DNA from: Eledone cirrhosa | Taxonomy: Eukaryota | NCBI GenBank assembly: GCA_964016885.1 | Contig: OZ024743.1 | Location: 112,096,001-112,160,000 of the forward strand | DNA length: 64,000 bases | Direction: 5' to 3' | In this document: piece by piece, positions 10,114 through 52,722 of the stretch | Position numbering within the stretch: the stretch's first letter is position 1 | Layout of the letters: every line of letters starts with the position of its first letter | Notes under the pieces: model-generated | What the model was told of the DNA's origin: nothing | What the model saw: only the letters and a program-made list of their open reading frames with translations | The model's database searches: none | Made by a program: the position numbers and the translations under genes

Positions 10114-11150
10114 ATTATAAAATAACAGGAGGCTGGACTGGTTTAATTCCTTGAAAGTTTTATTATACTATGATCATTTCAATGACCGTGTTCAGTATGA
10201 ATCCGGTGACATCATACGGTATTTGAAATATAATAAAAAGGAATATAATAGACAAAATCCATGGGCCCCGGGCTGGCCGGGGTCCGCAATATCGCTGGTT
10301 ATTGACCGCTAAGCATGGGCTTAATCTTTACTCTATATTCTACCCTGAAACTTTATCGTGACTGTCTATAATACACTTAAACTTTTTAATAAAAGCCTCC
10401 TTCTGTAAATTATTTTAACTAAATCTCATAACTTTAAACCTAAACCTTATTTTTCTAATTTCATTTTAAATGGCATCTTCTAAACCTAAACATGAATTTA
10501 ACGTTTCTAATTGTTAATCGTAATTTCTGTCAACACATGCAGACGCCCACTATATGTAGCTTTGTTGAAGAGATATATGTTCTTTGAAATAATATTTTTC
10601 GACGTACTTTCTAGCAAGCATGGCCAGCTTGATTGTAACCTGATCTCAACGCTGGCCTCTGTGTTTGACCGAGTGCTAGAAATACAACATAAGCCTACGT
10701 CCCTTCACCAGATGGACATACGTAGGCTTAATAATCACCACTTGAGGGCGGCCGACCAGGGGTAGTAGCAGCTAAATCTTCGGTCAGAACCATGGATTTT
10801 GTCTATTATATTCCTTTGTTATATTTCAAATACCTGATGATGTCACCGGATTCATACTGAACCTGGTCATTGAAATGATCATAGTATAATAAACCTTTCA
10901 AAGAATTACACCAGTCCAGCCTCCTGTTATTTTGTAATAATTAACTCCGTACTCGCACCACCAGCTACACACACGCAGAGGGGTGAGTTGCATTACGTTG
11001 AGTGCTCTCCGTAATATTACTGAAGGCTTCTTTGGTTTATTTTCATAATTCATCGGCTCTGTTTAATTACATTGAGCTATACTTTTACTGTCATTTCTAT
11101 AATACGAAGAGGGTGTGTAACTCCAACACACTCTAGTATTTTAATTCTTA
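10114..11150 (+). mobile_element. Non-coding PLE-type element with ~150-bp inverted arms and a 3' tail, inserted in (TA)n
   Basis: 10114-10264 is the reverse complement of 10790-10938; the right arm holds a hammerhead. Confidence 0.8.
10830..10887 (+). ncRNA. Type I minimal hammerhead ribozyme
   Basis: ATAC-CTGATGA-(stem II)-GAAA-TGATCA-TA-GTAT: helix I ATAC/GTAT and a palindromic helix III. Confidence 0.8.
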
Positions 11151-11221
11151 TATATATATATATATATATATATATATATATATATATATATATATATATA
11201 TATATATATATATATATATAT

Positions 11222-12658
11222 CATCCAGCTCTCCTTACATCCAGATCTGTCAACCGCTCTCTCCACACTTCTGATCTTCTCTATCAGTGCCTCCTCTCTG
11301 ACCTCAGTGTAAGCGGTACAGAGCTCTTCCCTCATCACCTCCACAGTCTCCATCCTCTCCTCCGTAGAATCAGCATAGAATTGGTCCCTGGCAGCTTTCA
11401 GGTGTTCTCTGGCTGCACACACTTTTGGGTCTGCAGAGCTGACGTGCTTCCCTTTGTTCTTTTTCCTCGGCACCAGGGTTTCACTTGCTTTCGCCACTGC
11501 ATTGGTGAAGTGCCCGTACCTCTTCGTCACACTCTCCTCAGTCCATCCAATCTCTCTCTCCTCTGACTCTCCACACAGAGCACTAAACCTGTTTCTCACT
11601 TCCACTGTGAACCTCTCCTGTAGCTTATCATCTTCCTTGAAAGCTCCCCAGTCATAGATTGTTCTCCGGGGCTGAGCCTTGCTCTTTCTTAAGCTCACGC
11701 GGACCTCACTCATAACAAGCCGGTGGTCACTACCCAGTGTACTGAAATAGCTGTATGGTTCCGTGTTCAGAACACTATTCCGCCACTTTTTCCTCACCAG
11801 AATGAAATCAATCTGGGACTTGGACAGGTGCATATCTGAGATGTAGGTCCACATCTTCCCCAGATTCTTCCTAAACCTTAGGTTGGTCGCCATCAAGTTC
11901 GCCTCCAGCAGGGTGTCTCTCAGTAGTCTTCCATTTCGGTTGGTGTTGTTATGGAAGTACCAGCAAGGATCTTCACTGCCCTCCTTACTCAGATGTGCAT
12001 TGAAGTCCCCCAAAACAAGCAGGATATTGTGTGCCTGAGTGGTGTTGACAGCTCTACACACTTCCTCATGGAACTCCTCGGCATTCACATCACTGTCCCC
12101 CTCGGTTGGACTATAGGCTGAGATGACTGTCAGTCTTGGGTTTCCATTGAAGGTCACCCTCAACACTCGCGGGGAGATAGGCATTATTTCCCTCACCAAC
12201 AGATTGGTTTTTGCACTGAACACAAAACCCACTCCTCCTACTGCAGCATTTGTTGTGTTCTTCACTGCCGATGTAGTGATGAGCTGGCTCTTCCTCCCGA
12301 TCATCACACTCCTCACGGGCTCATCGTGTAGAATCCTGTGTTCTTGGATCGCAAGTATCTGTATACCACTCTCCTCGAACAGATGTCCCAACTCCTCTCT
12401 CTTCTCCAGCGTTCGAATAGTCCTCACATTCAAAGTGCCCATTTTGATGGCTCCTCTGCAGGACAAAACTGCATTCTTTATATTTGTCTCAGAGACAGCT
12501 GATCCATCATCCACTGGCCCTCTCTGTGGCTCTAAGCCAGCAGAGTCATAACGACCAGGCTGCTCCTTGACAGTGTAATTAGGGGCTCTAACCCTAGTGC
12601 TGTTAGATCGACTCTCCATATTTCTTTTCAATGGCTGACAATACCTTACCGGCGCCAC
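11222..12658 (-). CDS. RTE LINE ORF N-terminal half: APE-type endonuclease and start of linker
   Basis: APE motifs GTLNVRT, LAIQEHR, SAYSPT, LGDFNAH, QIDFILV and GSDHRLV; runs into (TA)n after CKESWM. Confidence 0.92.
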
Positions 12659-12832
12659 TCGAATAAGGTAGTTATTTAACCCATAAATGGAGCCCTAACA
12701 GGTACTACCACCCCGGGCCAGGGCAGACCTGGGAGTCATGACAACTAAGGGGTAACTCCATATTCCCCACATCTCCTGAACTCCCGAACTGGAGCCTTGC
12801 CACTGGATGTAGTTTAATGTCATACCCAAGAC

Positions 12833-50463: not shown

Positions 50464-51707
50464 TGTAATATATATATATATATATATATATGTATGTATG
50501 TATGTATGTATGTATGTATACAGACATCACATAATCCTATATACTTAATATACTTATTTATATATATATATATATATATATATATATATATATATATATA
50601 TATATATATATATATATATATATATATATATATATATATATGAAAATACAATGTTTTCGCTTATCGAAGCAAGAGTGCATGAGTATACATATAAAAATGA
50701 GAAAACTCATCGCTGCAACATCCGTTAAAACAGCTAAATGCTATCAAAGACATGCCTCAGAAGACAGAGACCAGCGGCCAGTGGTCAACAGAGAGAGACT
50801 CCGCAAGGTTGGAGACAAACAGGTGAAATATAGAAAGGATTGAAAGAACAGGAGGAAAAGGGTGTTGGCGCATAGAAGTGACTGGAAGAGAGAAAGAAAT
50901 AAGGCGGTGTACAAGACAAGTTTACACATACATCTTCACCCTCATCACCATCATAGTTTTGCATGATCTAATTAAGAGTACCATTTTGAAATGATGAATC
51001 GTGCAACAGAAACATAAGTTTTCCACTGGTATGATGTGTGTGTGATAAAACAAGCAGCACAAACGAAAACATTTTCTGTTATGATGTAATACAAATGACT
51101 CGTCTTTCCATGTGCTGGGGTTGAAAAATGCATCTTGTACGCACAAATTTCCCCCTCCCCCTTCCATAGATCTCCATGCTTTAACAACCCTACCCGTTCA
51201 CGTCCCGCCTCCTCTTGCACCTCTCATGTCCTAAAACTCCACCTATGCCTGAAAACCCTTCCCCCTCAAATACGCACATAGATCTATATCCCCAATCCTC
51301 CAACGAAGTCCCCAGCCGAAACTGTACAGTAGACATGATGGCGACACAGAGCCTAGTCCACACTGTAATGTGATAATGTAGGTGTCATGTCAAAAAGCAC
51401 CCAGTACTCACTGTAAATGTATTTGGTGTTAGGAAGTGCATCCAGCCGTAGAGACCCTGGCAAAACCAGTCACGTATGAACAAGTCCTGATTATCGGACC
51501 TGGCTTGTCTCACAATGGAGCAACTCGACTAACCAATGCGAGCTTTAAACAGTGACAATGATGATGATAAATATACATATATACATATGTATAGATATGT
51601 ATATATATACATATATATATATATGTGTGTGTGTGTGTATATATATGTGTGTGTGTATAAGTGAGTGTATGTGTGTGCATGTGTGTAAGTGTGTGTGGGA
51701 GTGTGTT

Positions 51708-51920
51708 AGCATGAATGGGCCTGTTATTTGTATCTAAAGACATGTTTTCCAATTCCACCCGGCCCGTCTCTTCAATCTATCTTATTTCTCATTCTTTCTT
51801 CTGATGAAGGACGAGCGTCCCAAACGTTAAGACCTCCTTCCTGCTATTCCAAGCGTTAAAGTAATATATTCCTTCCATATACTGTAGCGATTGTGTTGTT
51901 ATTTCTGTTTACATTTTACC
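51708..51920 (+). mobile_element. Short PLE-tail-like repeat, copy 3
   Basis: TCTT-CTGATGA-AGGAC gagc GTCC-CAAA-CGTT-AAGA (GAAA mutated to CAAA). Confidence 0.7.
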
Positions 51921-52563
51921 TATACATATATACCTATATTGATATATACATACATATATATACAGAGAGAGATAGAGAGAGAGAGAGAGAGAGAGAGAGA
52001 GAGAGAGAGAGAGAGAGAGAGAGAGAGAGAGAGAGAGAGAGGGGGGTAAATATTCAATGCACCTAATGAATTGCATGAAATTTTAGATAATGCTGTCGGT
52101 AGATTATTGCTAAGAATTTCTAATTTGTTATCTGATAGGAACTTTCTAGTAATGCAGGAAATTGCATTTAGTGGTGCATTTTATTCTTACTTGATATTTC
52201 TTAACTGATATAAAGAGTTATACAGTACGAGTAAAAAATAACTTCAAATTTGTGGCCTCTATTTTATGATACAGCGCTCTCCTCTAAGAAGATAGCTCGC
52301 AAATTAATGTTCCAGTGTCTCAGTACTCTTTTCAGTCAAACTTTTTCAAACATATCTATAGATTTTATTTTTTCTATTTTATTGTTTTGTTTTGATTTGC
52401 GTCTTGTCTTCGTTTCTGTAGTCATACGGCATAGCAGAATCTATGATCTTAAACATATTACCTATATAAATAGGGTCATATTCTAAATCTATATATTTAT
52501 ATATATATATATATATATATATATATATATATATATATATATATATATATTTACATATATATA

Positions 52564-52722
52564 TAGGAAAAGAGTCAGGACCCCGACGGCTGAGCTCCGA
52601 CTGTTTTGACAGCTAGATCCGGGGTTCTGACTCTTTTCCTATTACCCACTCTACTACCCTAAGTATCGAGTACTATGGTGTGTTATGGTCCACCTGGTTC
52701 CTTACCACACTTTCTCTGTTTT
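52564..52722 (+). mobile_element. Fold-back remnant, same family as 47763
   Basis: AGGAAAAGAGTCAG...CTGACTCTTTTCCT arms plus a near-identical tail ATTACCCACTCTACTACCCTAAGTAT. Confidence 0.78.

Follow-up and report, generated by a model that had tools for sequence, protein, structure and literature searches.

Full-length Penelope-like elements (PLEs) of the Hydra clade carry two bulged hairpins in tandem in their 5' untranslated region (UTR), and genomic copies of these elements end at two fixed sites, each a few nucleotides before one of the hairpins. The pair is described here from a 64,000-nt stretch of the Eledone cirrhosa genome (assembly GCA_964016885.1, contig OZ024743.1, positions 112,096,001 to 112,160,000, forward strand; hereafter the window), from further loci of the same genome, and from metagenome contigs and published consensus sequences. 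The site before hairpin 1 is where inverted arms and tail-less copies stop, and the site before hairpin 2 is where tails stop. From these sequence comparisons we consider it probable, at roughly 0.65, that the tandem hairpins are protein-binding RNA sites that fix two internal starts of reverse transcription, and the comparisons favour initiation on the sense RNA over nicking. The pair thus likely tells the reverse transcriptase (RT) where to start, which would explain the long-puzzling PLE tail. The origin of the tail and of the inverted ends is an open question, named as the next task in PMC8557442 (2021), and the 2024 in vitro study PMC11167929 left the RNA signal undefined.

A hairpin motif at the ends of inverted arms

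Five sites in the window share one layout, running from (TA)n through an inverted arm, a sense arm and a tail to a second (TA)n (Table 1). A first-pass annotation of the window had noticed a hairpin of the form YACTC...GAGTRC where the inverted arm stops, and had read it as a conserved cis signal positioning endonuclease nicking or RT initiation. Both half-motifs are present at all six of its sites. The lower stem is kept throughout; there is no consistent pairing between the flanking Y and R (C faces A at 47895 and 52647), and at 10944 an A rather than a Y precedes ACTC. With the right arm taken to end at the left arm's (TA)n boundary, ACTC begins 7, 7, 7, 8 and 8 nt past the right arm at 10944, 27568, 31219, 47896 and 52648, distances that shrink to 4-6 nt once TA microhomology is counted. 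The motif lies downstream of a hammerhead or its remnant, as had been claimed: CTGANGA cores stand at 10834, 27463 and 31112, and only a 3'-half remnant precedes 47896 and 52648. A larger, decayed PLE likewise opens with the motif, starting at 22786 after (TA)n and 7 nt before ACTC. The bare pattern is mildly enriched in the window (10 matches against a shuffle mean of 4.5, with 1 of 100 shuffles reaching 10), barely above chance; position rather than occurrence carries the signal.

Inverted arms abutting (TA)n were then scanned for without reference to the motif in 1.664 Mb of the 3.0-Gb host genome chosen blind to content (the window and ten blocks) and in 0.28 Mb of search loci. The scan gave 169 arm structures, 115 of them from the unbiased part, in 58 clusters. 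A structural descriptor of the hairpin occurred no more than 14 nt from the arm end in 94 of the 169 copies, in 54 of the 115 unbiased copies, in 22 of the 58 cluster representatives and, counting clusters with at least half of their members matching, in 24 of 58. Shuffled sequences gave a mean of 1.15 (maximum 4 in 300), neighbouring 15-nt windows 0-6, and random positions 88 of 3348. Nested or broken arms make up many of the 58 clusters and were kept in the denominator, which dilutes these fractions. The stricter pattern of the first-pass annotation is a real motif but caught only 9 of 58 representatives within the same distance (0.08 expected from 300 shuffles; 2 of 3348 random positions). 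Its reading of the motif as a conserved cis signal at the arm end is supported, with enrichment across the genome and covarying pairs. The motif was absent from all four members of a Neptune-type cluster (cluster 7), from a second Neptune-type tail, and from the short-tail clusters 3, 8, 9 and 31, to which no clade was assigned. A search for an analogous repeated signal behind Neptune-type or other short tails yielded no copies reading through the tail end in the sequence covered.

Structure and covariation of the hairpin

The motif consists of a 4-bp lower stem, a 2-nt bulge on the 3' side, a variable upper stem and then an unpaired RCTY. In tails the wider form, which served as the structural descriptor of the scan, has a lower stem NYTC/GARN (ACTC/GAGT, GCTC/GAGC or GTTC/GAAC) and a loop of 3-61 nt. 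When hairpins are anchored by the lower stem and nothing else, Watson-Crick pairing is seen at the three upper positions in 69 of 82, 46 of 80 and 39 of 64 cases, levels reached by 0 of 5000 shuffles. The 2-nt bulge is the sole pairing register, with 154 Watson-Crick cells against 33-47 for bulges of 0, 1 or 3 nt, and 94% of alignment cells are paired against 24-53% in slid registers. The inner C-G, U-A and C-G pairs are invariant in the alignment, though these served as anchors. For hairpin 1 alone the upper pairs are Watson-Crick in 23 of 24, 19 of 23 and 15 of 20 cases (0, 0 and 1 of 5000 shuffles did as well), and it has 9 G-U against 1 A-C. This excess of G-U suggests that hairpin 1 acts as sense RNA. 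A TA step peaks at -6/-5 upstream of the hairpin (37 of 79 hairpins), and TAT or ATA occurs within -9..-2 in 71% of cases against a background of 21%.

Folding energy was considered as evidence and dropped as weak and uninformative. The Rfam 15 covariance models gave no match over the window hairpins among the 150 of 151 matches listed, the window matches being only microsatellite-driven microRNA noise, and none over the hairpins in 19 relative loci. Three loci (L293, L296 and L313) form a sub-lineage in which the lower stems of both hairpins are TCTC/GAGA, a concerted compensatory change.

Two hairpins and two end points

The first-pass annotation rightly placed a motif at the arm end, but missed the second hairpin, which marks the other end of the tail. 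In the family of the large PLE, 30 copies were examined by eye: 20 have their 3' end about 6 nt before hairpin 2, nine about 7 nt before hairpin 1 and one elsewhere, the second end point lying about 95 nt beyond the first. Hairpin 2 was sought past the tail end of the other window families in read-through tails, using patterns that required its 5' half only, and was confirmed in two. In the family of site 27568, GCTC...TT-GAGC/GAAC begins 8 nt past the tail end and is followed by the Hydra open reading frame (ORF) in 11 of 12 loci; in that of site 47896, GCTC-CTAC...GTAG-TA-GAGC-ACT begins 6 nt past it in 9 of 12 loci, two of which are the same place. The window tails themselves end accordingly, at 27649 (8 nt before the hairpin-2 start of full-length relatives) and at 47967 (6 nt before it). 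In the family of site 31219 only the 5' half of hairpin 2 is visible, 9 nt past the tail end. Tails are about 58-150 nt long. The start of the inverted arm is constant in most of the 30 loci shown of a young 141-nt subfamily, and the junction between its arms varies. Within the tail of the large PLE a separate long hairpin (22843-22875) fills the 3' half, between hairpins 1 and 2, and other tails likewise end in family-specific hairpins.

In three clean cases the inverted arm is longer than its sense partner (379 against 41, 164 against 49 and 108 against 58 nt). An automatic test of left and right arms in 83 structures scored 45 as 'both' and 11 as unresolved, and of the six 'left longer' cases with the motif, three could not be used owing to their complexity. 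Microhomology at the ends is mostly 3 nt. The assignment of each hairpin to a strand is a preference, not a rule.

Relatives in other organisms

An alignment of 25 relatives led to 78 loci on metagenome contigs, of which 13 were dropped because less than 80 nt preceded the ORF. Over the 200 nt upstream of the ORF, the remaining 65 loci had at least two hairpins in 34 cases, one in 17 and none in 14, against at least two in 4 of 259 ORF-internal windows and in 1 of 65 on the reverse strand. The spacing between hairpins is 58-83 nt (24 loci, one per cluster, chosen for two anchors), and about 20-60 nt separate hairpin 2 from the ATG. From 42 alignments, 17 at contig ends and two that read through were set aside; 18 of the 23 informative ends fall at a hairpin start (-12..+4) against 4.1 expected, 17 of the 18 within -6..+1.

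A covariance model built from 47 metagenome hairpins only gave 12 window matches at E <= 10. Its top seven were hairpin 2 of the large PLE, 47888, 52640, 28529 (in a new solo tail), 27560, 11048 (also new) and 22785; the site at 31211 scored E 4.6 and the long-loop site at 10944 was missed. The solo tail spans 28535-28616, with (TA)n on both flanks. One locus (L286) corresponds to the hammerhead and flanks given for Penelope-1_NV in File S2 of PMC8557442. Six consensus sequences from the same paper were inspected by eye. Hydra-1_Ajap has both hairpins at its start and stops just short of hairpin 1, and Hydra-2_Ajap and Hydra-2_Amil have hairpin 1 in the tail, so that the hairpins are clear in sea cucumber and coral; Hydra-1_Crog (sea louse) and Hydra-1_Obim (octopus) have loose versions, and Hydra-1_Amil has no hairpin at its end. 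The tandem hairpins occur in one PLE clade across several animal phyla.

Clade assignment

The first-pass annotation held that the families bearing the motif are unrelated. This did not stand: sites 47895 and 52647 belong to one family (90.8% identity over 87 nt), and every motif-bearing family that could be linked to an ORF is, by motifs and similarity, of the Hydra clade. The motif families thus appear to be diverged members of that one clade. According to PMC8557442, the Hydra clade is marked by RW(K), a CxCx5C linker, the lack of CCHH, a hammerhead in the pseudo-long terminal repeat (pLTR), (TA)n targets and both tandem and inverted copies. The translation of the large PLE has the linker (CNCRNPESC) and lacks CCHH, as do other matches in the genome, and RMRW and DKT can be read in its broken frame; RLRW occurs among the relatives of families 27568 and 47896, and DKT in an intact relative (P0002). 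Its broken ORF pieces lie in order over 22935-25500, RT followed by a C-terminal GIY-YIG endonuclease, which matches Pfam weakly (E 0.026) and is 37% identical to that of P0002. Putative hammerhead cores lie in the pLTRs at 10834, 26294, 27463 and 31112, and the insertions are flanked by (TA)n; none of the Rfam hammerhead models scored in the window among the matches listed, and one locus elsewhere (L313) did score. Hydra-type endonuclease remnants stand upstream of clusters 0, 1, 2, 5, 10, 14, 19, 34 and 50, all of which bear the motif, and two Neptune-type remnants lead into motif-free tails. One of these, at 8007-9730, is placed by its CxxC linker and CCHH residues. A search of representative proteins indicates that the Hydra clade is large. 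A long low-complexity in-frame stretch of the large PLE (24340-24790), resembling the inserts of rotifer PLEs, separates its RT thumb from its linker.

Proposed mechanism and alternatives

We infer protein binding, priming and strand use from the arrangement described above. Each hairpin would bind the RT-endonuclease of the element, and RT would start just 5' of the hairpin base, giving ends 2-9 nt before the hairpin. The endonuclease would nick both strands of the (TA)n target. One freed 3' end would pair with the UA step before hairpin 2 and yield a sense copy ending in the tail; the other would pair with the UA step before hairpin 1 and yield a tail-less inverted arm. The two complementary DNAs (cDNAs) would then be joined by microhomology at their far ends, and the tail would simply be the RNA between the two starts. 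Should a single RNA be primed at both starts, synthesis of the first cDNA would halt at the point where the second had begun, which may account for a minority of copies that begin at a hairpin. With a binding hairpin 3' of each start, tailed copies, tail-less copies and inverted arms would all be explained. A more specific form, which we put forward tentatively and at a little less than even odds, is a doubled landing pad, in which two proteins on two identical bulged hairpins prime both nicked (TA)n strands at programmed internal sites. If this is correct, the tail, the inverted pLTR and the tail-less copies follow from one rule, and a hairpin with a UA step is a portable signal for where any RNA is written into DNA.

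Several observations weigh against initiation at bound hairpins. Cleavage explains equally well the copies whose start is at the hairpin site, which number 4 of 30 in the large-PLE family and about 8 of 150 by eye (about 6%; an automatic count flagged 21 of 150, with diverged subfamilies misfiled). An inverted arm can start at the hairpin-2 site (L215). Covariation of hairpin 2 is weak, with 50 and 35 of 5000 shuffles doing as well at its second and third upper pairs, and it has 2 G-U against 5 A-C; the covariation shuffles and register controls also ignore sequence relatedness. Thermodynamic stability is low (z from -2.1 to +0.3 over 10 folds), and in 4 of 7 window examples the minimum-energy structure differs from the drawn hairpin. 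The -12..+4 window for copy ends was set post hoc. The structural descriptor was derived on the first 1.26 Mb of the scan, that is, after seeing data; among the 24 clusters met only later it matched in 6, where about 0.6 were expected. Finally, the start of the PLE Poseidon is reported to lack homology to the cut DNA, whereas there is a TA match here.

At three loci (L197, L203 and L215) a copy beginning at the hairpin is joined directly to an inverted piece. Such copies fit two primings on one RNA and fit cleavage equally well, which keeps two rivals alive. In one, which we regard as unlikely, cleavage of the RNA a few bases 5' of each hairpin comes first, whether through the PLE protein, a host nuclease or an activity of the RNA, and ordinary target-primed reverse transcription proceeds from the new 3' ends. 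A cut would cover both 3' ends as well as copies with their starts at these points (the large PLE, the 28535-28616 solo tail, the four family copies, and L251, L264, L305 and L321), and it is compatible with the sense-strand G-U bias. Yet copies starting at these sites are the small minority given above, most sense copies running past the hairpin-1 site into the pLTR; no ribozyme family in Rfam matches at the hairpins; and in PMC11167929 the size of the Poseidon product was unchanged when RNA was added 3' of the start. The other, to which we give slightly less credence still, has the hairpins acting in DNA, where the GIY-YIG endonuclease would recognise single-stranded DNA or a cruciform, nick the adjacent TA and resolve a longer cDNA at two fixed points. 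In favour of this, the TA step of the target recurs at the hairpin site, and in some loci (L251, L264) that exact position is occupied by a (TA)n run or another copy; resolution by the endonuclease is the origin given for the tail in PMC8557442, and tail-dependent recognition by the Drosophila enzyme is cited in PMC11167929. Loops of 6-60 nt and upper-stem covariation speak against recognition of a duplex, however; the excess of G-U over A-C in hairpin 1 indicates the sense strand, whereas first-strand cDNA is antisense; and Poseidon ends coincide with mapped RT starts (PMC11167929).

That the hairpins merely control translation or transcription from the 5' UTR, with ends falling nearby only through TA-rich microhomology to the target, seems very improbable. 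The short distance from hairpin 2 to the ATG and the thermodynamic weakness of the hairpins would suit such a role, but the pLTRs are AT-rich throughout and still show only two end points, and the spacing between the TA step and the stem is constant. Least credible is that the first cDNA folds back on itself to give the inverted arm, with synthesis stalling at hairpin 1. Self-priming was proposed for such palindromes in PMC3846280, and arm junctions do show 2-4 nt of microhomology and palindromic centres. The three clean cases in which inverted-arm sequence is missing from the sense copy need a separate priming event, and this model leaves the tail end at hairpin 2 and tail-less sense copies unexplained. 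We rejected simple fold-back as largely refuted by these longer left arms.

Relation to known systems

In twin priming of L1, both target strands prime cDNA, and an inverted 5' piece is joined by microhomology. Initiation at two hairpins, as proposed here, would share both-strand priming, the inverted piece and the microhomology joint. In L1, however, the first priming point is the poly(A) end and the second is variable, whereas here neither point varies, both are internal, and the two arms in most cases cover overlapping sequence. Hepadnaviral epsilon and the stems flanking the telomerase template are RT-bound bulged stem-loops that set the start or stop of synthesis. The hairpins described here differ in that the start would lie 5' of the stem, the primer would be nicked DNA and the element is doubled; there is no sequence or Rfam match.

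A close parallel is Poseidon_Ac (PAc), a PLE in which RT starts internally at two sites bounding the tail; RNA is needed to +172 although the start maps at +111-118, the protein nicks and extends both target strands, and hammerhead cleavage is not needed (PMC11167929). Genomic copies here also end at two fixed sites bounding the tail. PAc belongs to another clade, its starts are located within its ORF, in a single AC-rich stem-loop, and the available text reports no conserved or duplicated motif; the Hydra elements, by contrast, have a conserved bulged hairpin doubled in the 5' UTR and a TA step that matches the target. For the Hydra clade itself, PMC8557442 gives a tail of 30-40 bp, made by endonuclease resolution, which differs from the longer, hairpin-bounded tails found here.

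A search of openly accessible literature, as text, found no account of the motif, in line with the first-pass annotation, which knew of no description; no Rfam family matched in the searches given above. The word 'hairpin' is absent on term look-up from the main text of PMC8557442 and from PMC4209133, PMC3846280 and PMC13282606, so far as these were accessible, and the available parts of PMC2377424, PMC5737381, PMC6765202 and the preprint 10.64898/2026.07.22.740005 do not mention the motif. The Hydra clade, the tail and internal initiation are already described; a clade-wide RNA motif within this known element is apparently new.

The motif is short, conserved and covarying, and it makes exact predictions, tying hairpin 1 to the end of the inverted arm and hairpin 2 to the tail. 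With it, the true ends of Hydra-clade elements can be annotated, and short fold-back repeats, easily filed as short interspersed nuclear elements (SINEs) or miniature inverted-repeat transposable elements (MITEs), are shown to be PLE derivatives. Because PLE enzymes are the closest relatives of telomerase, a template boundary set by structure in PLEs would also bear on telomerase origins.

Features of the window

Table 1. Hairpins and associated PLE features, in window coordinates.
Feature	Position	Strand	Details
Neptune-type PLE remnant, internal control	8007..9730	+	inverted arms, 40-nt tail, without motif
Inverted pLTR arm of site-1 element	10116..10264	-	adjoins (TA)n; 92.6% identical to 10790-10936
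Sense pLTR arm	10790..10936	+	putative hammerhead core CTGATGA at 10834
Hairpin 1	10944..11007	+	ACTC/GAGT, upper stem CGTA/TACG, TT bulge, 42-nt loop, 3' GCTC; scan cluster 11
Piece of another high-copy family joined into tail	11018..11148	+	39 other top matches cover this piece only
Own hairpin of joined piece	11056-11077	+	GCTC/GAGC, TGT/ACA, TT bulge; covariance model E 0.23
Decayed Hydra-clade PLE (large PLE)	22786..26395	+	tail-less; ends at hairpin-1 site of its 3' pLTR
Hairpin 1 of large PLE	22793..22831	+	ACTC/GAGT, CGG/TCG, TC bulge
Hairpin 2 of large PLE	22887..22909	+	GCTC/GAGC, TT bulge; ATG at 22935; best model match, E 0.0011
Minimal hammerhead core (putative), 3' pLTR of large PLE	26294..26330	+	CTGAAGA ... 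GAAA
Fold-back arms	27243..27560	.	27243-27395 / 27408-27560; hammerhead core 27463
Hairpin 1	27568..27596	+	ACTC/GAGT, CAGT/ACTG, TA bulge
Additional hairpin 1, absent from first-pass annotation	28537..28586	+	GCTC/GAGC; model E 0.0067; inside solo tail
Fold-back arms	31011..31211	.	31011-31063 / 31159-31211; hammerhead core 31112
Hairpin 1	31219..31242	+	ACTC/GAGT, CA/TG, TT bulge; tail to 31303
Fold-back arms, young 141-nt non-autonomous subfamily	47765..47887	.	
Hairpin 1	47896..47923	+	ACTC/GAGT, TAC/GTA, TT bulge
Short fold-back arms, 23 nt each	52563..52642	.	same family as 47765
Hairpin 1	52648..52675	+	ACTC/GAGT, TAC/GTA, TC bulge

Young derivatives and neighbouring repeats

The 141-nt non-autonomous family (window 47765-47967; loci L001-L030) is very young, with 40 of 40 scored copies identical among 1250 first-look candidates. 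Its 5' end is fixed, insertions are nearly always palindromic, and the arm junctions show repeated short template jumps. The full-length parent of this family forms head-to-tail arrays with a period of about 3.54 kb (C1:91476604-91487271 and C1:437200339-437210966; L352). The first 130 codons of L352 that were read are open, and about 85-190 nt upstream of its tail end there is a hammerhead-like fold with a long stem III and a non-canonical core that lacks CTGANGA. An inverted arm of the 47765 family also lies at 9749-9805, in (TA)n directly after the Neptune-type tail; PLEs of different clades accumulate in the same TA runs.

Other repeats in the window include a 205-nt tandem array (4928-6868) derived from a dispersed repeat with copies at 30052, 31761, 33559 and 48696. 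A split long interspersed nuclear element (LINE) occupies 11141-14509, with an inverted apurinic/apyrimidinic (AP) endonuclease part on the minus strand, an RT part on the plus strand and (TA)n at the left edge, and looks like an ordinary 5' inversion. Related LINE copies of the Tx1/L1 type (78-82% identical) lie at 16294-19441 and 57485-62618, the right copy having long open frames.

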